DNA from: an uncultured Gammaproteobacteria bacterium
GTDB taxonomy: Bacteria; Patescibacteriota; Patescibacteriia; Magasanikbacterales; UBA922
Direction of reading: 5' to 3'
NCBI GenBank assembly: GCA_964394405.1
Contig: CAYMVY010000001.1
Coordinates: 428,585-492,584 of the forward strand
Length of the DNA stretch: 64,000 nucleotides
Below, in pieces: positions 3,632 to 53,594 of the stretch. The position numbers were made by a program, and so were the translations under genes. Numbering within the stretch: position 1 is the stretch's first letter; every line of letters begins with the position of its first letter. The notes under the pieces are model-generated. The model saw only the letters and a list, made by a program, of their open reading frames with translations, made no database searches and had not been told where the DNA came from.

Positions 3632-5026
3632 TTAGATACGCTTCATTTTGGTCATTTTGATTACAATCGGAGTTCCCTCAAAACTGAATTCTTCACGTAA
3701 TTTACGTTCCAGATATTGTAAGTATGAACGATGAAGGGATGTGCGATATTTAATAAAAGCTTCGAATACGGGTGGGTCAGTGTTAATTTGACGGAAACGA
3801 GTAATGGAAGGTTGTCTAGTTCCTTTTCCGCGCGCAGGTTTGTGTTCCCAGGTAACTCGCTTGATAAAGAGATCTAATTTTCGTTGATCAACTTCTGTTT
3901 TTCGTGCTTCGGAAATCGTGGCTAATAGCGGAAATACCTGCTGTACGCGGTACCCACTTTTTCCACTAACAAATAAGATTGAAGCAAAATCAAGGTGTGG
4001 GAAATGAGCGTAGATCATCTGCTTCACCTCATTTCGGTGTGCGTCACTGTTGTCTTCCGCAAGATCCCATTTGTTCACCAGAATCACAACACTCTTGCTG
4101 CGTTTTTCGATAAGTCCTGCAAGTTGCATATCCTGTACGGAAATTGGCTCACTTCCATCAATGATCATGAGGATAATATCTGAGTGTTCAATCGTTTTAA
4201 TACTTTTGCTGATACCTTGTCGTTCTAGGACACCTGACACTTTTGCCTTTCTTCTAATACCCGCAGTATCAATAAAGGTGATTAAATATTTTTTTCCATC
4301 CATTTCGTAATCAACGGTAGTATCAAATGGTTCACGAGTGGTGTGTGCGATCGGGGATACAATTACTTTTTCGTCATCAATCAATTTATTAAACAAACTT
4401 GATTTTCCCGCGTTTGGTTTACCGATAAGGGCTACGTGGATGGTCTGTACTTGTTCCAAACTTTTTACTTTTGGTTTTTTTGATGCGAGATCAAGTGATT
4501 GATATATAAGATCAAGTAAATCTCCAACACCTCGTCCAGTTGCGGCTGAAATCATGTGGGGTTCTCCCATAGCAAGAGATGCCCAATCTGAAATAAGAAA
4601 TCCTTGTTCAATTTTTTTACTATCAGCTTTGTTTGCAACGAGAAATATATCTGCATTTTTTTTGTACGTGCGCACAATCATACGAGCGAGCTCCTTGTCC
4701 TGTGGGAGAACTCCTTCTTGTGAGTCAATGACAAATAGGATGATGTCCGCCTCTTTGAGAGCTTTACTCGATTGTTCGAGAATCTCATCGGCAAATAATT
4801 CGTTTTCCTTTGAATCAATTCCGCCGGTATCAATCAGTCGCACGTATTGTCCGCGCCAGAGGATATTACCCTCGTTATTAGTGCGAGTGGTGCCTGCGAT
4901 GTCAGAAACAAGTGCTTTGTTTTCTTCAATAAGCGCGTTAAACAACGTCGATTTACCTGCATTTGCTCGGCCGACGATAACCACGACTGGTAGTTGTTCT
5001 TTTAAGGCTACTCCAGGAATTGCCAT
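3632..5026 (-). CDS. der: ribosome-associated GTPase Der (EngA), tandem GTPase domains + KH-like C-terminus
   Basis: 464 aa. Two P-loops (GRANAGKST and GKPNAGKSS), two DTAG motifs, NKxD motifs. Confidence 0.9.
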   Translation of the reverse strand: MAIPGVALKEQLPVVVIVGRANAGKSTLFNALIEENKALVSDIAGTTRTNNEGNILWRGQYVRLIDTGGIDSKENELFADEILEQSSKALKEADIILFVIDSQEGVLPQDKELARMIVRTYKKNADIFLVANKADSKKIEQGFLISDWASLAMGEPHMISAATGRGVGDLLDLIYQSLDLASKKPKVKSLEQVQTIHVALIGKPNAGKSSLFNKLIDDEKVIVSPIAHTTREPFDTTVDYEMDGKKYLITFIDTAGIRRKAKVSGVLERQGISKSIKTIEHSDIILMIIDGSEPISVQDMQLAGLIEKRSKSVVILVNKWDLAEDNSDAHRNEVKQMIYAHFPHLDFASILFVSGKSGYRVQQVFPLLATISEARKTEVDQRKLDLFIKRVTWEHKPARGKGTRQPSITRFRQINTDPPVFEAFIKYRTSLHRSYLQYLERKLREEFSFEGTPIVIKMTKMKRI

Positions 5027-7255: not shown

Positions 7256-7285
7256 TTGACTTTTAACTGTTTTTCGGGGTATACT
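7256..7285 (+). promoter_or_regulatory. sigma70-like promoter (TTGACT-N18-TATACT) likely driving partial-tRNA / GIY-YIG / tRNA-Arg transcript
   Basis: ttgact at 7256-7261, tatact at 7280-7285. Sits downstream of a 14-bp inverted repeat (aaaagtcataaagt / actttatgactttt). Confidence 0.4.
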
Positions 7286-7309: not shown

Positions 7310-7369
7310 GCACTCGTCGTTTAACCCCGACGATTAGTCGGGGCTCCGACTTTACGTCGGAGTGGATAG
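7310..7369 (+). other. partial copy of tRNA-Arg(GCG) 5' end (22 nt) interrupted in the D-loop by a 38-nt double perfect hairpin insert
   Basis: 7310-7324 gcactcgtcgtttaa is identical to tRNA 7646-7660. Next come two perfect 7-bp hairpins (ccccgac-gatta-gtcgggg, ctccgac-tttac-gtcggag). Then tggatag (7363-7369) continues the tRNA sequence before diverging. Confidence 0.5.
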
Positions 7370-7381
7370 TACTATACAAGT

Positions 7382-7645
7382 ATGGAGGGATTTGTATATA
7401 TTCTAGAAGATGATCAGGGTAAATTCTATATCGGTAGTACTACAGATATAGAACGAAGATTTGCTCAACATACGTCTGGTCATACTCAAACTACACGAAG
7501 AATGGGAAGGTTAACTTTGCGTTTAGTACAGAAATACGATACCTTAGAGCAAGCTCGTTCAGTTGAAAAATCGATTAAAAAATTAAAGAGAAAGGATTAT
7601 ATAAAAAAGATGGTAGATGAACAGTACATTAAAATCAAACCTTAA
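7382..7645 (+). CDS. GIY-YIG nuclease family protein, YhbQ/UPF0213-like
   Basis: 87 aa. FVYILEDDQGKFYIGSTTDIERRFAQHTSG aligns with E. coli YhbQ ([30 protein letters not shown]). Its stop codon directly abuts the tRNA-Arg 5' end. Confidence 0.8.
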   Translation: MEGFVYILEDDQGKFYIGSTTDIERRFAQHTSGHTQTTRRMGRLTLRLVQKYDTLEQARSVEKSIKKLKRKDYIKKMVDEQYIKIKP

Positions 7646-7717
7646 GCACTCGTCGTTTAATGGATAGGACACTAGCTTGCGGAGCTGGTAATCGTGGTTC
7701 GATTCCACGCGAGTGCA
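7646..7717 (+). tRNA. tRNA-Arg (anticodon GCG as read)
   Basis: Manual cloverleaf: acceptor GCACTCG/CGAGTGC, D-arm GTTT-AATGGATA-GGAC, anticodon stem CTAGC/GCTGG with loop TTGCGGA, T-arm CGTGG-TTCGATT-CCACG, discriminator A. No encoded CCA. Confidence 0.8.
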
Positions 7718-7721
7718 CAAA

Positions 7722-39900: not shown

Positions 39901-40289
39901 CCTTTACATCCACGCGCCCATATATGCTCTGGATTGATGGAGCATCTGTCACGATTTCCAATTCTGAATTAATAGATTCCCGGCGTCCAGGTGGAATTAT
40001 GGTTGTGAGAAACGGGAACGTAGTAGTACGAGATTCTGAGTTAGGGTGGTACACAAATTATAATAAATTATCTAGCTGGAAAGAGTATGGAATTGTAGGA
40101 ACTACTCAATCAAAAATTCATATTGAAAACCTAGATTTTCGAAAAATGGATTATGTTATAGAACTTAGTCAGGGGGCTACGACGACCTATGCTCGTATGA
40201 GCAAAGACAATTTTATTGAGCTATATAAACCTGAATTAAATCAGAAAAATTGGTTTCCACAGAATATGTTTCCATTTCAGTTGTGGTGA
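36945..40289 (+). CDS. giant secreted protein: N-terminal M23 (LytM-type) peptidase + lamin-tail domain (LTD) + long parallel beta-helix-like repeats
   Basis: 1114 aa. Signal peptide. M23 motifs (HxAxD...GECGTSGADNVHLHFEV). LTD signature (EIAWSGSSG...EWIELYNTS...NWVL). C-terminal Gly/Ser/Thr/Asn-rich beta-helix-like repeats. Confidence 0.75.
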   Translation: MKRRGLRVFWYIIFCAVLSCGGKSISVAANNTDQFLQLPIASSIKVLQGWIYTMPVNGNLNHGAMDYDCEPGESIFAASDGIAMSSRQVSAVSGFGYGNFVFIKHDNEYATLYGHLHKPSEKIIVYPSNQKSNTHYSEWVRVQKGDYIGECGTSGADNVHLHFEVTTGKYAVGRVDSYDLYKTKQFYPPNASYTALGEKHLWMSDPPQYLETKIVENQVNEMVTEKKSILDTIKDWFAPREVISPESKERDTLVTEELDLSFVDKKISLRAHPTENMHVIVQAKNIGSRVWKKQEISLNVIGGREANSIFRHPTWVTDLRPALLDNTEVKPGEIGTFSVRIKSLSEGSYTVRLMAVEVGTWKQIGAESIEISIGISEEPQETIGETPTSTSKTEKGNPFEGIVRGIKEFTETVVDKVVDVIKSVPRFLGGGGGGYSSSNEHSQSVVENPVADPIVIEEQNVAEENTEVESVPEIQKEVILNEIAWSGSSGACSDHEWIELYNTSSTEQSLENWVLDIHTIDSTSTVMLTGSIGGNGYYLISHAGVFPPSTIPDLVILPNVQIPDNGARLVLKNQDGEIVDEIDQREGWLGGDTGRFPRTLERASSHLLDGVNTRWETSDSVRYGVASGVCGQITGSPGMANEGYAYVSDNTLGFYTDQAGEIVLSSEENPYLFSTFSIPQGEKVSISRGTVFAGISSDARIDVGGELVVQGSESEPVIITSRNDTEYITSTSLWNNLFTGQTPQAGDWQHITIHSEGKLTITHAQIRYGGNRYGASIACLACARSQVISNHGGSILLSHVEISNGYESGSSGKPDSLIYSDGGSVVLDQLHLHHGKRALHSEGNAEISTRSLTMHDFDLTDKVVFFQDRMPTVWEDIIFGENSPTYAYSPALVVTSSYIFSTGTQFQFSTVSVSRGATLTINEGNLYATEIKIHGNLNMQGGATKNEISGGPSSSSVFSYILFSPSSTGVLSQVRLRGGGYSSANPFTSTRPYMLWIDGASVTISNSELIDSRRPGGIMVVRNGNVVVRDSELGWYTNYNKLSSWKEYGIVGTTQSKIHIENLDFRKMDYVIELSQGATTTYARMSKDNFIELYKPELNQKNWFPQNMFPFQLW

Positions 40290-40307
40290 AGATTGATACA
40301 ATCAAAA

Positions 40308-40380
40308 AAACCGTTCGCTATTCCTCCATACATGTTTCCAAAATATGTTAGAAACATATGTGGTGTGCGAACGGTTTTTT
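40308..40380. terminator. long bidirectional terminator hairpin between convergent genes
   Basis: aaaaaaccgttcgc ... gcgaacggtttttt with an inner palindrome acatgtttc...gaaacatatgt. Confidence 0.5.
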
Positions 40381-40445
40381 GTTACGCAGACCACGCTCAT
40401 GTGGGGGTCCGCGAATAGAAATCATGTCTCCTCCAGTATTGTTGA

Positions 40446-41135
40446 TCAGCCGATCTGCATGGCGATGAGGGCCTTGGCACGCTGTCGGTCGACGAACTGC
40501 TTGCCGTGTCCGATCTCGGTGTTGACGGGGACACCATCCTTGCAGAATGGACACTCATCCTCGGTCCAGTTGTTGAGGTCGAGATCGTAGAGTGTCGCGA
40601 GGAAGGGCACGCCGAGTGTATCAGCGGTGACCTTGCTCATGCTCCGATTCACGATCGCAGCGACACCGAGGACCGTGCCACCGAGGGCGCGCACTGCATC
40701 GATGACTTTCTTGACCGACTGCCCAGTCGTGATGACGTCTTCTGCCACGAGAACGTCGTTGCCAGAGACGAGGGACTGGTAGCCGCGATTGAACACGAAC
40801 GACCCATCTGCCGTCTTCTCAGCGAAGACGGAATGAATCGGGAGATTCGTGCGGATGTACTGGCGCAGGTGAAACCCGAGCCAGGGGGAGAGGATCGCTC
40901 CTCCCATGGCAGGGCCGAGCACGACCTGGGGAACCTGCTTCAGTTGGGTGGTTGTGGCGAGGTGTCTGATGCACTCCTCGGAGAGCGCCTGACCCATGAG
41001 AGTCAGGAGGTCTGGCCTGGTGAAGAGTTTGTTCTTATCGACGTAGATGTCACCATGGCCACCCGCCGCATAGACGAAGTGTCCGGTGGTGATGGCGCCG
41101 ATCGCCTGGATTCTCTCTTGAGCACTCTGTCTCAT
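40446..41135 (-). CDS. type I phosphoribosyltransferase, orotate-PRTase-like (high-GC cassette)
   Basis: 229 aa. PRPP-binding VLVAEDVITTGQS. C-terminal WTEDECPFCKDGVP resembles PyrE-like proteins of high-GC lineages. GC-rich codons. Confidence 0.7.
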   Translation of the reverse strand: MRQSAQERIQAIGAITTGHFVYAAGGHGDIYVDKNKLFTRPDLLTLMGQALSEECIRHLATTTQLKQVPQVVLGPAMGGAILSPWLGFHLRQYIRTNLPIHSVFAEKTADGSFVFNRGYQSLVSGNDVLVAEDVITTGQSVKKVIDAVRALGGTVLGVAAIVNRSMSKVTADTLGVPFLATLYDLDLNNWTEDECPFCKDGVPVNTEIGHGKQFVDRQRAKALIAMQIG

Positions 41136-41269
41136 GTGTATCTCCCTATTGTGTGTGGAGGCATGGATGCCCGCCTTCTATATACGTTATTTTGTACTAT
41201 TCGTCAATATATATACCAGCTATGGTATACGTTTTTAGTTATAAATTAGCCAAATTTACTCAGTTAGGA

Positions 41270-41298
41270 TTGACATTTCTATAAAAATATGCTACACT
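41270..41298 (+). promoter_or_regulatory. consensus sigma70 promoter TTGACA-N17-(TGc)TACACT
   Basis: ttgaca 41270-41275, tacact 41293-41298. AAGGGGG RBS precedes ATG 41366. Confidence 0.5.
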
Positions 41299-41365
41299 GT
41301 TCCGTTCTAAGTAGCTGGGCAACGAGCCTTCCTACCTCTAGGACATCAACCTTAAGGGGGTGTTC

Positions 41366-41731
41366 ATGACTGCACTGAAGGCGAAGACCTATTTCGTTCC
41401 GTTCGCCATCTCGCACTATCTCGAGTTCTACGAGCGCGTGTTTGCGGGTCAGATGATCCGCGTCTACATCTACAGCCTCGGACTTCGCTGGGTGCTCCCG
41501 AGAGAGCCCAGGAACAACGAGAAGGAGAAGAAGCTCGAGTTCGAGTTCCAACTCGTTCCCGAGCCCGGAGAGACGACCCGAGCTCGGAACCGGTGGTTCG
41601 AGGGCGAGTTCCTGTGGGAGACCTGTGACGGTTTCCTGAAGGTGGAAGCCGAGCTACTCCGCCCTCTCGGGAAGGTCGAGCTCGCTCCGTGGATCGCCAA
41701 AGAGGCGACCGTGGAGCACAGACACGTCTGA
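41366..41731 (+). CDS. hypothetical protein, high-GC cassette ORF C (121 aa from MTALKAK)
   Basis: GC3-saturated codons (AAG GCG AAG ACC TAT TTC GTT CCG ...). No family recognised. Confidence 0.55.
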   Translation: MTALKAKTYFVPFAISHYLEFYERVFAGQMIRVYIYSLGLRWVLPREPRNNEKEKKLEFEFQLVPEPGETTRARNRWFEGEFLWETCDGFLKVEAELLRPLGKVELAPWIAKEATVEHRHV

Positions 41732-41809
41732 GAGCTCCAGCTCTCTCTGACCCGACGCGTGCGACATTGTCCCTGGACAATCGATCGCACACGCGTCGGG
41801 GACAATCTA

Positions 41810-41846
41810 CCCCGCCTTTCGCGAAAGGCGGGGTTTTTGTTTTTTC
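41810..41846 (+). terminator. rho-independent terminator after ORF C (preceded by a ~50-nt palindrome cgacgcgtgcga...tcgcacacgcgtcg)
   Basis: ccccgcctttcgcgaaaggcggggtttttgtttttt. Confidence 0.6.
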
Positions 41847-41954
41847 AAATAAAAAATCCTTTATTTCAAGGATGCTATATGTATCTGGAATGTGGGACAC
41901 GGTGCAACACACAGCACTCTCGAGCGAGCGTGTGGGTTGCACCGTGGTACGGCG

Positions 41955-42297
41955 TCAGTGGCTCGGGGTAGAGGAATTCGAACCTTTCCTGCTCCACACG
42001 ATGTTGTGGTACCCGGTGCAGTATCCGTGGCAGACCACCCTCGGCCCGCCTACCCTAGGTTGGGCGCTGGCCTTTTTGTGGTACACCACCTCACCCGTGA
42101 GCGCACCAGGACAGAGCTCCCAATCGGGATGGTAGGTCCCGTCGGGAGAAATCGTGGCGAGACCAGAGATGGTGCGTCCGTTCTCCTGGAAGAGAACTGC
42201 ATTGTGCAGACCCTCCCTGAAGTGGCCAGTGATCATGAGATGGTCGTCCTTTCCGGCGACACTAGTCTCGGGCTGGATCATGAACTTGTTTGTCATG
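41955..42297 (-). CDS. hypothetical protein, high-GC cassette ORF D (start at MTNKF inferred from codon-usage break)
   Basis: From MTNKF downstream the codons are C/G-ending, while the upstream 36 codons of the ORF-track ORF are AT-rich. Competing + strand ORF 41892..42410 is Arg/Ser-rich, suggesting antisense artefact. Confidence 0.4.
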
Positions 42298-42461
42298 TTG
42301 ACGGTATCCCTCCTATGTGTGTTTCCGCCTCCCAGACGGATGTTGAGCTGATAACCTTGGGCAAGGTCAGGGAGATAAAAACGACAACTAGTATCGTCTC
42401 TACTCACTGATCTGTTATATACCAGGAAACATGAACGCCCTCCACAAGGAGGGCGTAATAA

Positions 42462-42537
42462 TGGTGACCCCGGTGGGGATCGAACCCACGACCATTGGCT
42501 TAAAAGGCCACTGCTCTACCAGCTGAGCTACAGGGTC
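42462..42537 (-). tRNA. tRNA-Lys (anticodon TTT), CCA encoded
   Basis: Reverse complement GACCCTGTAGCTCAGCTGGTAGAGCAGTGGCCTTTTAAGCCAATGGTCGTGGGTTCGATCCCCACCGGGGTCACCA. Followed (3') by hairpin cgccctcc-acaa-ggagggcg. Confidence 0.85.
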
Positions 42538-42581
42538 ATTAAATTGGTTTGTCACTTACTCTTCTATTATAAGTCGATAAG

Positions 42582-42634
42582 ACCAGCTGCCCGCCCGCCG
42601 AAGCTTTAGCGTAGGCGGGAGCTACAGGGTCATT
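42582..42634 (-). other. partial copy of tRNA-Lys 5' end (13+7 nt) interrupted at the D-loop by a 30-nt GC-rich hairpin insert
   Basis: Minus strand AAT-GACCCTGTAGCTC-[CCGCCTACGCTAAAGCTTCGGCGGGCGGGC]-AGCTGGT-cttatcg versus tRNA AAT-GACCCTGTAGCTC-AGCTGGT-agagcag. Confidence 0.5.
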
Positions 42635-42893
42635 TGTAATGAGTCAATGACGAATATACTAACCTAAGAATATAAAAAAGTCAAGCAAACTATAGCATAA
42701 AAAAGGAAAGTATAGTGAAGCTTCGAATTTTTGTTGTGAGAATGAAAATTGTATCAGTTCTGGCTACGAGAGGGGTGTCTCATTGTAGTTTGGGTAAGTG
42801 AGCATATATCAGTTCTATGTTTGGAATTTTGTGTGTCATGTACGTGAGTATGTTGCTCGTTTTTCTTTTTCACGATACACTATAGACATAGTA

Positions 42894-44339
42894 TATATGT
42901 CAAAACAGGTAAAACAAACCAAAATAGTTGCAACAATCGGTCCATCATGTGAGTCAGTAAAAACTCTCGAACGCATGGTGCATGCAGGGATGAATGTTGC
43001 ACGATTGAATTTTTCACACGGCACACATGAAAATCATGCGCTTCTTATTGAGCGTATTCGAGAAGTTGAAAAAAAGACGCATGAGCCAGTAGCAATATTG
43101 CAGGATCTTCAGGGACCAAAATTACGATTGGGTGAAATAGAAAAAAAGGGTATCGAACTGATCAAAGATACTGAAGTTGTATTTACTCATCGTCCCGAGA
43201 CTTCTCTCGAAATACCACTGGGTTACGAACGATTATACGAATATGTAAAACCAGGAGAACGAATGTTATTGGATGATGGTCGTCTCGAAGTAAAAATAAT
43301 AAGAGTCGAACAAGAAAAAATAATTGCACATGTCATTGTCGGAGGTGTGTTGATGTCGCACAAGGGGATTAATGTACCTGATTCTAATTTGAAAGGATTG
43401 AAAGTATTGACTGAAAAAGATCGAGAGGATTTGAAATTTGGAGTTGAACACGGTATTGATTTTGTTGCCATGTCTTTTGTCATGGATCCGCAAGACATTC
43501 TTGATGTAAAATTTTTTATCAAACAGATCGAGCAGGGAATTGGAGAGACAAGACTTGACCCAATTCGCATTATTGCAAAAATTGAAAAACACGAAGCCGT
43601 TCAGAAGATTGAAAAAATTATTGAAGTGGCGGATGGAATTATGATTGCGCGAGGTGATCTAGGAATTGAAATTCCAGCTGAAAAAGTGCCTTTGATTCAA
43701 AAGAAAATTATTGATCTAGCGCGCACGCATGCAAAGCCAGTTATTGTCGCAACACAAATGCTTGACTCTATGCAGCATAGCCCGCGTCCTACACGTGCCG
43801 AAGTCTCTGATGTGTCAAATGCGGTAATCGATCATACAGATGCAGTCATGCTTTCCAATGAGACTGCAAGCGGTGAATACCCAGTCGAGACTGTCGAGAC
43901 TATGAAATCAATTATTCTGTCAACCGAAGATTCTGTGTATGACGACGTATTAGCTAGAGAAACGAGGTCTAAGGTTAAAAGCATTGATACTACAATCAGT
44001 AGTCTTTCAAAAATTGTTGCAGAAGAAGTGGATGCTCAATTAATTCTCGCGGCGTCTCTATCAGGAGACACAGGGCGACTCATTTCACAGTACAGACCTG
44101 AGCTGCAAATCGCAGTTGCAACAAGCTCGGTGAGGGTCTGTCGTCAACTCAATTTGTCATGGGGCGTGCGACCATTTATTCTCGGGGAATGTAAGACGAT
44201 TGAGGAATTGATCGAGCGTTCAATTCTCGAACTTAAGAATAAAAAATTTATTTCATCAGGAGATCGATTGATTATCGTAGCAGGAGAACCAGTGGGCCAG
44301 GCAGGCCATGTAAATTTGCTTGAAGTGAGAGAAGTCTAA
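42894..44339 (+). CDS. pyk: pyruvate kinase
   Basis: Start at MSKQVKQTKIVATIGP. The ORF-track N-terminal extension is AT-rich and non-conserved. NFSHG and MIARGDLG motifs. Confidence 0.9.
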   Translation, partial: YMSKQVKQTKIVATIGPSCESVKTLERMVHAGMNVARLNFSHGTHENHALLIERIREVEKKTHEPVAILQDLQGPKLRLGEIEKKGIELIKDTEVVFTHRPETSLEIPLGYERLYEYVKPGERMLLDDGRLEVKIIRVEQEKIIAHVIVGGVLMSHKGINVPDSNLKGLKVLTEKDREDLKFGVEHGIDFVAMSFVMDPQDILDVKFFIKQIEQGIGETRLDPIRIIAKIEKHEAVQKIEKIIEVADGIMIARGDLGIEIPAEKVPLIQKKIIDLARTHAKPVIVATQMLDSMQHSPRPTRAEVSDVSNAVIDHTDAVMLSNETASGEYPVETVETMKSIILSTEDSVYDDVLARETRSKVKSIDTTISSLSKIVAEEVDAQLILAASLSGDTGRLISQYRPELQIAVATSSVRVCRQLNLSWGVRPFILGECKTIEELIERSILELKNKKFISSGDRLIIVAGEPVGQAGHVNLLEVREV

Positions 44340-48996: not shown

Positions 48997-49047
48997 TTCA
49001 CCCCGACTTAGTCGGGATTGGCTTTCCCACTTTCCCCCTATGAACTA

Positions 49048-51200: not shown

Positions 51201-51374
51201 AGTGTGGAAGTAGTTCTAAAATAAATAACTCGCACGTAGGAGTTATTCTGGTGGACAGGTTTTCAGTTAAACAATTAGGCGTACTTGATCAACACATGTC
51301 AGGAGAACTTCTGCCCGGTCACTCATCGCATTCTTTGTTGGACAGGTAGGACTGTGTTGTTGTAAAAAATCAAG

Positions 51375-51448
51375 CGGGCTGGACGGGACTCGAACCCGCA
51401 ACTTCTGCCGTGACAGGGCAGTGCTCTAACCAGTTGAACTACCAGCCC
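51375..51448 (-). tRNA. tRNA-Asp (anticodon GTC)
   Basis: Reverse complement GGGCTGGTAGTTCAACTGGTTAGAGCACTGCCCTGTCACGGCAGAAGTTGCGGGTTCGAGTCCCGTCCAGCCCG. Anticodon loop CTGTCAC. Confidence 0.85.
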
Positions 51449-53190: not shown

Positions 53191-53594
53191 TGGTGGAGAT
53201 GCCGGGAATTGAACCCGGGTCTAGACGGGTTACCCCTACAGTCTACATGTGTGTCGATATTTGGGGTAGTAACATGCGATTAAAAAATATCGCAAAATGT
53301 CGCATGCACTCATATGCTAGGTTTCAACAAACTGCGGATATGATACACAGCTTGTCTACACTCGAGCGTGGGTTGGCACCGCGAGCCCGCTATCGAGTAT
53401 CGCGGGTGCGATGGCATGTAGGTTTTAAGCTACAGCAGGAGCAAAGCTAGATACACTGAAAGCTTTCGCTACAGCGCTCTTAGCTCGCTCTAACAAGTTT
53501 GCACTTGTAGGTTTGCCTGAGAGTATACAGAGATCAGGCACTCTGACATGCATATAAAAGATAACGAGTCCGCCTATCGAACCCTGTCATCCCC
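53191..53594 (-). ncRNA. ssrA: tmRNA (ssrA)
   Basis: Minus-strand 5' end GGGGATGACAGGGTTCGATAGGCGGAC matches the tmRNA 5' consensus. 3' end ...CCCGGGTTCAATTCCCGGCATCTCCACCA is the tRNA-like T-arm plus acceptor plus CCA. Internal ORF-like tag ends ...AKAFSVSSFAPAVA-TAA. Immediately downstream of smpB. Confidence 0.75.

Follow-up and report, generated by a model that had tools for sequence, protein, structure and literature searches.

Repetitive extragenic palindromic (REP) elements are GC-rich imperfect palindromes of ~30 nucleotides (nt), and their RAYT is a Y1 HUH transposase. The GC clusters of yeast mitochondria and the palindromic elements of Rickettsia are likewise short and GC-rich; they insert into AT-rich genomes and can land within genes, RNA genes among them. 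Islands and prophages are said to integrate into transfer RNA (tRNA) genes and to regenerate the gene, Williams having reportedly set out the sublocation preferences of integrases in 2002. Mitochondrial free-standing GIY-YIG open reading frames (ORFs) reportedly sit at gene ends together with a replacement segment, as at atp6 of Allomyces (Paquin, Laforest and Lang, 1994). Here we describe a 64,000-nt stretch of DNA, the whole of which is called the window below, from an uncultured bacterium placed by GTDB in the Patescibacteriota (contig CAYMVY010000001.1, positions 428,585 to 492,584). In this stretch a tRNA-Lys(UUU) gene is preceded by a copy of its own 5' end, split by a 30-nt GC-rich hairpin unit. 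From sequence comparison we consider it likely that a small mobile GC hairpin element once entered the resident tRNA-Lys gene at its D-arm and left this structure as its footprint.

REP elements with RAYT are the closest model for hairpin units tied to a small nuclease gene. In both systems the units have sharp edges, are scattered between genes in either orientation, sometimes as tandem or inverted pairs, and a small nuclease gene is flanked by cognate hairpins. REP elements, however, are species-specific and work with an HUH transposase, whereas the gene found beside the hairpins here is of the GIY-YIG family, the unit is kept across contigs of 30-70% GC, and tRNA loops are recurrent targets. 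GC clusters and Rickettsia elements stay where they insert and are tolerated in the gene product; in the present case the interrupted tRNA copy is defunct and is made good by a fresh intact one, and a nuclease gene is associated. Islands that integrate into tRNA genes resemble the present elements in their target, in leaving the gene functional and in a partial tRNA copy that marks the far element end. They differ in using tyrosine or serine recombinases, in duplicating the 3' part and in spanning kilobases, against 5' duplications of 13-22 nt, units of 94-336 nt and no recombinase among the ORFs tested here. The Allomyces-type ORFs likewise bring along a part of the host gene that keeps it intact, and leave the displaced original as a pseudogene fragment, but they concern organellar protein genes, act at 3' ends and lack hairpins, whereas tRNA genes, usually the 5' part, and a hairpin at the break of the displaced copy are involved here.

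The closest characterized precedent is SegB of phage T4, according to its abstract a free-standing GIY-YIG homing endonuclease encoded in a tRNA gene cluster, whose 27-bp recognition site holds a conserved tRNA stem-loop motif (TpsiC) and which spreads with neighboring tRNA genes, replacing the recipient tRNA region (PMC2330249). Judged from that abstract, the likeness lies in a GIY-YIG gene among tRNA genes. The phage enzyme SegB is of full size and includes a DNA-binding part, whereas the protein considered here is a bare Slx1/UPF0213-type domain of 87 amino acids (aa), encoded in bacterial chromosomes and not found in viral contigs; the abstract describes no hairpin repeats or partial tRNA duplication, which here take the form of GC hairpins in D-arm or anticodon-loop sequences. 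A 2006 survey of GIY-YIG proteins treated bare bacterial Slx1-like proteins as vertically inherited, cited an earlier DNA-repair prediction for the group and noted only a fusion to a TrmH-like tRNA methyltransferase (PMC1564403). That survey makes no mention of tRNA-gene neighbors, hairpins or a selfish lifestyle as proposed here; the Arg-locus protein is by sequence a member of the UPF0213 family (PDB 1zg2, 1ywl). No description of such a system or of its 31-nt sequence was found in the searchable literature, coverage of which was incomplete, and an earlier description is possible.

Anatomy of the tRNA-Lys locus

Read along the minus strand from the promoter, the locus comprises the following parts (labels such as L089 and L082 denote loci of other genomes).

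42656..42684, minus strand: sigma-70-like promoter TTGACT-N17-TAGTAT, the sole promoter-like site in 42380-42920
42635..42655, minus strand: native leader from the -10 box to the original tRNA start, delimited by comparison with empty sites
42619..42634, minus strand: left copy, AAT plus GACCCTGTAGCTC (tRNA-Lys nt 1-13: acceptor 5' strand, nt 8-9 and D-stem 5' strand), a 16-nt exact direct repeat of 42525-42540
42589..42618: CCGCCTACGCTAAAGCTTCGGCGGGCGGGC, GC hairpin unit of 30 nt that copies a widespread repeat of ~31 nt
42582..42588, minus strand: AGCTGGT, read as tRNA-Lys nt 14-20 (D-loop), directly after the hairpin unit
42541..42581, minus strand: AT-rich filler of 41 nt between the interrupted copy and the regenerated gene start, aligning with the fillers of L089 and L082
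42462..42540, minus strand: AAT of the right repeat copy and intact tRNA-Lys(UUU) (42537-42462), from ARAGORN and Rfam
42435..42456, minus strand: terminator-like hairpin 3' of tRNA-Lys

ARAGORN and Rfam agreed on the tRNA-Lys(UUU) call at 42462-42537 of the minus strand (Rfam 70.4 bits), and GACCCTGTAGCTC, which follows the AAT at 42631-42619 of the same strand, corresponds to nt 1-13 of that tRNA. A first-pass annotation had reported an upstream copy of the tRNA-Lys 5' end split by a 30-nt insert, whose removal restores 23 nt of identity including 3 nt of 5' flank. Sequence reading and a repeat finder, in which the 16-nt direct repeat forms family D3, bear out both statements, with 23 of 23 positions (nt -3 to +20) identical once the insert is taken out; the spacing, first given as ~85 nt, measures 94 nt from start to start. 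The 13-mer alone has an E of 0.05 over the whole window and both strands. Chance is excluded for the copy because the 13-mer is less than 100 nt away, shares the strand of the gene and has a further match in register behind the insert. The insert had also been called a near-perfect GC hairpin, which overstates its fold: it forms one stem of 5 bp and another of 3-4 bp around a large loop, with unexceptional stability (RNA -13.6 kcal/mol, z = -1.5; DNA z = -0.6). The filler contains no ORF. Features of a tRNA intron, whether of group I or bulge-helix-bulge type, were likewise not found at the locus, where only 7 nt of tRNA follow the insert and Rfam gave no intron match at E <= 1.

Filled and empty tRNA-Lys sites in relatives

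Loci of relatives were reached via the neighboring pyruvate kinase gene, and eight Lys loci were examined. Over the stretches read, tRNA-Lys is identical in seven related genomes apart from the 3'-terminal CCA, which several lack, and the promoter hexamers and their spacing are kept in L082, L084, L088, L089, L090 and L092. Three relatives (L090, L091 and L092) have empty sites, in which the -10 box is kept, ~94-105 nt are absent and the identical tRNA-Lys follows; the stretch read held the whole TTGACT-N17-TAGTAT promoter for L090 and L092 and the -10 box for L091. From the -10 box to tRNA nt 1 these sites measure 16-28 nt. In the window it is the partial copy that starts 24 nt after the -10 box, at the position of the tRNA start in the empty sites.

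Filled sites were met in the window and in two relatives. L089 shares the window's gene order and has a perfect left copy and AGCTGGT, with a longer, degenerate insert that has the end CGGCGGGCAGGC in common with that of the window. L082 has GACCtgGTAaCT as the decayed remnant of the left copy, and its orthologous insert begins TCCCGACG, the core motif of hairpins linked to GIY-YIG genes (below); the CCCGCC/GGCGGG of the window and CCCGAC/GTCGGG are one compensated pair apart. The fillers are alignable (45 nt in L089 and L082, 41 nt in the window), and AGCTGGT is unchanged in all three. L084 and L088 carry a different AT-rich palindromic insert of ~85 nt in the Lys leader (tagttcatagcc...gctatgaacta; 745-850 in each), where the window has the hairpin unit. 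None of the eight Lys loci has the duplication without a hairpin. Presence and absence of the structure among otherwise matching loci show that it is a derived insertion of ~94 nt into the D-arm of a resident gene, and that the interrupted fragment is the original 5' end of that gene.

The same comparison bears on whether the interrupted fragment was selected for a function in the tRNA-Lys leader, as a processing or stability signal, a decoy for RNase P or tRNA-binding factors, or an attenuator. Such a function would fit the left copy and AGCTGGT, kept at 23/23 in the window and L089 amid a leader of ~80% identity, the place of the fragment behind the sole promoter, where the leader of this essential tRNA is transcribed, and the folding of the 57-nt interrupted fragment, which is better than that of shuffles (z = -3.0). 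We nevertheless find it improbable. Three relatives have the identical tRNA and the same promoter without the fragment, and L084 and L088 carry their unrelated insert instead. The insert has decayed in the orthologous loci, its hairpin in L089 included, and the left copy has decayed in L082. At the gathering threshold Rfam matched only tRNAs and the transfer-messenger RNA (tmRNA) in the window, and at E <= 1 it matched nothing over the tRNA-like fragment in 40200-42900, where weak sub-threshold matches to small RNAs and microRNAs lie elsewhere in the cassette next to the gene. Gene conversion from the tRNA 94 nt away explains the conservation equally well, and the occurrence of the layout at many tRNAs beside a nuclease gene points to an origin in mobile DNA. 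These observations speak against the regulatory tRNA-mimic leader that the first-pass annotation had listed among its candidates; given the 23/23 identity, later co-option of the interrupted copy for a leader function is possible.

A complete form at tRNA-Arg and related GIY-YIG loci

A second tRNA gene of the window, tRNA-Arg(GCG), has the same layout together with a nuclease gene.

7256..7285, plus strand: native promoter TTGACT-N18-TATACT, identical in the empty-site relative L217
7310..7324, plus strand: left copy, tRNA-Arg(GCG) nt 1-15; the intact tRNA of L217 starts at exactly the same position relative to the leader
7325..7362: two perfect 7-bp hairpins, CCCCGAC-GATTA-GTCGGGG and CTCCGAC-TTTAC-GTCGGAG (folding z = -6.0)
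7363..7369, plus strand: TGGATAG, read as tRNA-Arg nt 16-22
7382..7645, plus strand: standalone GIY-YIG nuclease gene of 87 aa, ending 0 nt before the intact tRNA (Pfam GIY-YIG 1.1e-14)
7646..7718, plus strand: intact tRNA-Arg(GCG), from ARAGORN and Rfam

In the relative L217, promoter, leader and tRNA nt 1-15 together span 85 nt, of which 82 are identical to the window, and they run on into an intact, identical tRNA-Arg(GCG). The Arg structure of the window is therefore a 336-nt insertion after nt 15, composed in turn of the hairpins, tRNA nt 16-22, a stretch of 12 nt, the ORF and tRNA nt 1-15 again. On its 5' side the Arg site is empty in L216 and L218 too. Arg (filled in the window; empty in L217, L216 and L218) thus shows the presence/absence polymorphism seen at Lys, a feature of free-standing homing endonuclease elements. 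The 87-aa protein is a bare GIY-YIG domain with no recognizable DNA-binding domain; its closest solved relatives are the UPF0213 proteins 1zg2 (E = 9e-11) and 1ywl (1e-9), followed by Slx1, and it is the one GIY-YIG ORF of this kind in the window. The first-pass annotation was right that Lys and Arg share one layout. It had also equated their insertion points, which differ slightly (after nt 13 at Lys, after nt 15 at Arg), and had left the nuclease gene in the Arg gap unmentioned. Elsewhere in the window, an isolated small hairpin with the CCGAC-family core motif, CCGACTTAGTCGG, occurs at 49003-49015.

An alignment of 52 homologues of the 87-aa ORF was used to fetch 80 loci from GTDB-representative genomes, mostly labelled Patescibacteria or another lineage of the candidate phyla radiation, and the ORF was re-found in 79. 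From these loci (L002-L081) we define a class, tRNA-gene-invading hairpin / GIY-YIG elements. A same-strand tRNA starts between -50 and +200 nt of the ORF stop in 68 of the 79 loci; four further loci end at a contig edge and three have a tRNA directly upstream of the ORF, and in all the nuclease gene stands directly beside a tRNA gene in 71/79. Clusters of GC hairpins lie at most 130 nt upstream of the ORF in 69/79 and also just 3' of the tRNA in 22. The tRNAs concerned are Arg, Thr, Phe, His, Ile, Met, Lys, Val, Asn and Ala. At most loci the hairpins stand inside a copy of the tRNA 5' part, after nt 10, 11, 15, 16 or 17, and are followed by 5-14 more nt of the tRNA; in L079 they stand in an anticodon-loop context. 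Upstream of 39 of the 126 tRNAs in the fetched loci there is a copy interrupted by hairpins other than the Lys unit. The repeat usually starts exactly at tRNA nt +1, with a leftward extension of 0-3 nt in 34 of 39 cases. A target-site duplication of fixed length that extends into the leader is unsupported by these values, while cuts at ~+1 and ~+22 stay possible. Collectively, these loci establish by alignment that the same architecture has been made at many tRNA genes by elements carrying a small GIY-YIG nuclease gene.

The hairpins of these elements have a common structure. An invariant CCGAC/GTCGG core is shared by 131 hairpin clusters located within 600 nt of a GIY-YIG gene, and the outer two pairs covary (CC/GG 45, CT/AG 44, AG/CT 27, TC/GA 27). 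Among 203 hairpins, G.T mismatches are no more frequent than A.C mismatches (15 versus 21), so the palindromes look to belong to the DNA level, and we rejected RNA-level selection on them. Units of the CCGAC family without an ORF occur in L035, L053, L062 (in tandem) and L068, and in L053 and L068 they adjoin ORF-bearing ones.

In L019, L020, L023, L037 and L079 an intact tRNA is followed by one or two 5'-truncated, hairpin-interrupted copies. The truncated copies of L019, L023 and L037 show compensatory T-stem and anticodon-stem changes relative to the intact tRNA and were therefore once functional alleles; their pattern indicates repeated invasion with replacement of the working copy. In 22 loci (L003, L005, L007, L008 and 18 others) the ORF lacks a stop codon of its own and ends at T8-A9-G10 of the tRNA, read as TAG. 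RNase P processing of a co-transcript would therefore cut away the stop codon, which could act as a built-in limit on nuclease expression. L028 (2230-2842) has an intact tRNA-Val(GAC) and a GIY-YIG ORF between two fragments: upstream the 5' part of one tRNA (GCGCGCATAGCTCAG...), interrupted by a hairpin, and downstream the 3' part of another, preceded by a hairpin. Such an arrangement suggests a variant of the element with the order hairpin, tRNA, ORF, hairpin that splits a resident tRNA gene.

Seen against this class, the Lys locus has a 5'-end copy from nt +1 at the native promoter distance, an intact same-strand downstream tRNA identical to the partial copy, and a hairpin within a tRNA stem-loop. 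Class members carry the hairpin in the D-arm after nt 10-17, rarely in the anticodon loop, with 5-14 nt of tRNA resuming; at Lys it stands after nt 13 and nt 14-20 resume. The ORF of 85-90 aa between interrupted copy and intact tRNA, present at Arg, is missing at Lys, as it is from L035, L053, L062, L068 and L179. In place of two hairpins with a CCGAC/GTCGG core there is one with a CCGCC/GGCGG core.

The Lys unit might accordingly be an element that once bore a GIY-YIG ORF between AGCTGGT and the regenerated tRNA start and lost it by internal deletion. Its architecture is that of Arg save for the ORF, GIY-YIG elements occur at tRNA-Lys(UUU) elsewhere (L054, L080), ORF-less units adjoin ORF-bearing ones in L053 and L068, and L210 contains a GIY-YIG pseudogene. 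The fillers decide us against it: at 41-45 nt in the window, L089 and L082, they resemble GIY-YIG ORF DNA no more than shuffles do, and their equal length in three diverged lineages requires the deletion to predate the split. Moreover, hairpin-only units with fillers of 5-21 nt exist (L179 and L062), and the Lys hairpin is of the CCGCC type, unlike the hairpins beside this GIY-YIG clade. We regard such a deletion as unlikely. The end of the window's filler (gac aaa cca att taa) was also considered as a relic of an ORF 3' end like the aaa cct taa at Arg, and rejected: the element-free L084 and L088 share the leader sequence aacYaatttaa, and there is no ORF similarity.

The hairpin unit in other genomes

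Metagenome contigs were scanned for exact matches to the 22 specified bases of CCGCCTACGCNAANGCTTCGGCGG, and the unit is defined as the CCGCCTACGCYAARGCTTCGGCGG repeat of ~31 nt. At least 120 contigs, with unrelated flanks and GC contents of 30-70%, contain the exact 22-base pattern. Among the matches listed, to which the copy counts in this section refer, the edges of the unit are sharp, with an information content of ~0 at position -2 and from +31 on. A core is followed by a conserved 3' tail, RCRRGY, and 104 of 124 copies have complementary bases at -1 and +25. Positions 11 and 14 covary (C/G in 78 copies, T/A in ~45), which separates two subfamilies. The 30-nt insert of the window is an exact unit with these edges and unrelated flanks (core 24/24, tail GCGGGC); by these sequence matches the Lys insert is a mobile repeat unit found across many uncultivated bacteria. 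Three head-to-tail copies stand at 1494-1579 of L122. Within the fetched loci the best match, at 2259-2284 of L011, is identical at 23 of 25 positions, a value reached by 0 of 300 shuffles; it lies in the opposite orientation, in a T-loop-like context within a tRNA 3' fragment. This full-length match is used here as the link between the hairpin types in place of the loop motif GCTAAAGC, a shared 8-mer that is within chance for the size of the hairpin set.

Units are concentrated near tRNA genes, with 13 of 124 copies at most 150 nt away against ~2 expected. In L179 the unit occupies the same D-arm position of another tRNA, with a 26-nt duplication, a 5-nt filler and an intact tRNA 5' end, in the order ATTATTCTGCGATAGCTC, unit, AGTTGGTA, AAAAC, ATTATTCTGCGATAGCTCAGTTGGTAGAGC. 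On the minus strand of L179, downstream of 11847, a group-I-intron-like sequence (...GGTTCAGAGACTA...) apparently follows the anticodon stem of the scarred tRNA, for which ARAGORN makes no tRNA call. L179, like L062, represents the hairpin-only units with fillers of 5-21 nt. GIY-YIG ORFs that fit the family profile are present in 6 of 123 unit loci, four of them within ~1 kb of the unit. Such ORFs lie near CCGCC-type units in L137, L203, L136 and L210, the last with the pseudogene; in L137 the order is tRNA-Ala, inverted unit pair, GIY-YIG ORF, and a CCGCC-type variant adjoins a GIY-like ORF in L045 as well as in L137 and L210. Inverted unit pairs right after the CCA end of tRNA-Ala(GGC) were seen in L137 and L176. 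The unit is present in just three viral contigs, the GIY-YIG family was not found in viral contigs at all, and a phage origin was rejected on these grounds; plasmids of cultured bacteria (7.3 Gb) gave only chance-level matches to the unit.

These copies also bear on a reading in which nt -3 to +20 were first duplicated in tandem by slippage or error-prone repair and a REP-like hairpin later inserted independently, the likeness to Arg being coincidental. Most copies of the 31-nt unit do lie outside tRNAs and without flank duplication, and insertion and duplication are separable in principle. A 10-nt flank match within 600 nt was found in 6 of 129 copies checked, and duplication of the left flank of the tRNA type only in the two tRNA cases; the other four matches come down to low-complexity repetition, to duplication of a larger unit or to right-flank similarity at a distance. 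Yet two coincidences would be needed at Lys and again in L179, where the tRNA is a different one and 26 nt are duplicated; the same combination, with other hairpins, recurs upstream of the 39 of 126 tRNAs in the fetched loci; and the hairpin is always in the promoter-proximal, non-functional copy. An independent origin of the two parts is therefore very hard to credit. The recurrent mechanism at tRNA genes that the first-pass annotation had suspected is strongly supported. Its small hairpin element that targets the D-arm and leaves a regenerated tRNA is in essence the picture given by the empty sites, by the unit and architecture of L179, an unrelated contig, and by the 79 GIY-YIG loci. The annotation had allowed that chance similarity would be indicated if no further tRNA showed the pattern and relatives were colinear without the fragment. 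Further cases were found; relatives without the fragment exist, and they are empty-site evidence for insertion, not for chance.

Neighboring cassette and other features of the window

The GC-rich cassette noted in the first pass does abut the 3' side of tRNA-Lys. It occupies 40300-42430 (GC 50-53%) and contains three ORFs.

40446-41135, minus strand: 229-aa phosphoribosyltransferase-like protein
41369-41731, plus strand: ~120-aa protein
41955-42296, minus strand: 113-aa protein

Searches of the cassette ORFs against Pfam, PADLOC and PHROGs gave no integrase or defense-system match, the sole family match being the phosphoribosyltransferase domain of one ORF. Because the content at the cassette position differs among relatives, the 3' side of the tRNA has the look of a hot spot for insertions. 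At 41752-41831 a 48-nt palindrome (CCGACGCGTGCGAC...GTCGCACACGCGTCGG) adjoins a terminator-like hairpin, CCCCGCCTTTCGCGAAAGGCGGGG, and the pair is near-verbatim in the window and L089 (~4290-4490). A cation-transporting P-type ATPase gene of ~2.7 kb lies between tRNA-Lys and pyruvate kinase in L082, L084, L088 and L090-L092; the window (42538-42897) and L089 have no such gene, and their M23-peptidase/LTD gene is across the cassette.

The cassette gave some ground for the attachment-site (att) duplication of integrase type that the first-pass annotation had entertained, in which a tyrosine- or serine-recombinase element such as the 40.4-42.4 kb high-GC cassette would have integrated into tRNA-Lys: it directly abuts the gene, the region is variable among relatives, and L089 has a second tRNA-Lys 3' end ~190 nt downstream. 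The duplicated 5' 20 nt, however, sit on the upstream flank of the tRNA, whereas the cassette adjoins the other flank, and the DNA between the copies is 94 nt long and geneless. No recombinase domain was found in five neighboring ORFs with Pfam or in the three cassette ORFs with PADLOC and PHROGs, the window contains no repeat of the tRNA-Lys 3' end, and the insert is a defined 30-nt repeat unit of at least 120 unrelated contigs. Of the readings weighed here, att duplication has the least in its favor and is next to incredible.

The second tRNA-Lys 3' end of L089 (CACCCACCGGGGTCAC, within 4540-4720) has a counterpart in L216 (3156-3305), where a second tRNA-Arg 3' end (ATTCCACaCGAGTaCA) lies downstream of the intact tRNA; the distances are about 130-190 nt. 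The intervening inserts are alike (...GGATYGRAAYCGRRC...GTGAGTGAGAT), and these copies may represent a separate small element family that duplicates tRNA 3' ends. The search for upstream partial copies at the window's other tRNAs and its tmRNA found none, two of these genes being:

51374-51448: tRNA-Asp, no upstream partial copy
53191-53594: tmRNA (Rfam 102.8 bits), predicted tag peptide ANLLERAKSAVAKAFSVSSFAPAVA, no upstream partial copy

Proposed mechanism and significance

The comparisons show that the ancestral Lys locus had the order promoter, leader of 16-28 nt, tRNA. In the lineage of this genome about 94 nt were added after tRNA nt 13, namely the 30-nt hairpin unit, nt 14-20 for a second time, the filler of 41 nt and a further copy of nt -3 to +13. 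The original 5' end thereby kept its native promoter distance but was interrupted, while an intact tRNA was reconstituted 94 nt downstream, where it is probably still transcribed from the same promoter. As for the mechanism, we propose that the GIY-YIG nuclease would break tRNA genes in a stem-loop, usually the D-arm, working in cis at Arg and, at Lys, either in trans or at an earlier time; repair would place the hairpin at the break together with a second copy of the 5' segment, either by copying from an element-bearing allele or by staggered-break fill-in that duplicates nt 1 to ~22. An interrupted tRNA without a regenerated copy is presumably strongly deleterious, and survivors would be seen only where an intact tRNA was regenerated. 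Such survivorship would explain why the flank duplication occurs at tRNA genes and not at other hairpin copies. With no nuclease gene at the locus and decay in sister lineages, the Lys copy is most likely an inactive relic.

Several points count against a hairpin-element footprint at Lys and against the mechanism just outlined. Nuclease cleavage, the target site and any transposition intermediate are all putative, and the intact tRNA of an element-bearing allele still holds the presumed target. Duplication of nt 1 to ~22 fits several models alike: homing in which a filled allele passes on its tRNA part, fill-in at a staggered break, or the integration of a circular form. Because the Lys locus has no nuclease gene and its filler no trace of one, it is linked to the GIY-YIG enzyme by analogy and association only. 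Its hairpin is single and weakly folding, not one of a perfect pair, and has the core CCGCC/GGCGG, unlike the CCGAC/GTCGG of the GIY-YIG family. The perfect left copy of the window and L089 could reflect gene conversion or some function. Finally, pyruvate kinase identities among the relatives are star-like (77-86%), which fits a single gain with vertical descent and repeated gain or loss alike.

A broader proposal, to which we give even odds, is that standalone Slx1/UPF0213-type GIY-YIG nucleases and their cognate GC hairpins of ~30 nt form a widespread, undescribed class of bacterial selfish elements. These would break tRNA genes in a stem-loop and leave a hairpin as a plug in the broken copy, with the tRNA itself regenerated or replaced, so that the host comes to depend on the element-linked copy and graveyards of disabled alleles build up. 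The hairpins would also spread on their own, in the manner of REP elements, across phyla, and the tRNA-Lys locus would be a fossil of the process.

If this is correct, a tiny mobile system repeatedly targets the tRNA genes of streamlined Patescibacteria, and apparently those of many further uncultivated bacteria, and escapes lethality because it rebuilds each gene that it interrupts. Such a system would account for tRNA-like pseudo-fragments, for GC hairpins by tRNA genes and contig breaks at these places, and for horizontal replacement of tRNA alleles. The analysis also brings to light a 31-nt sequence conserved across very different genomes. In annotation, fragments of this kind should not be labelled tRNA pseudogenes of unknown origin or regulatory leaders. 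Moreover, the large family of bare Slx1-like GIY-YIG (UPF0213) proteins, hitherto without a concrete role, would acquire one, as nucleases whose cleavage may be structure- or tRNA-gene-specific and may be of practical interest.

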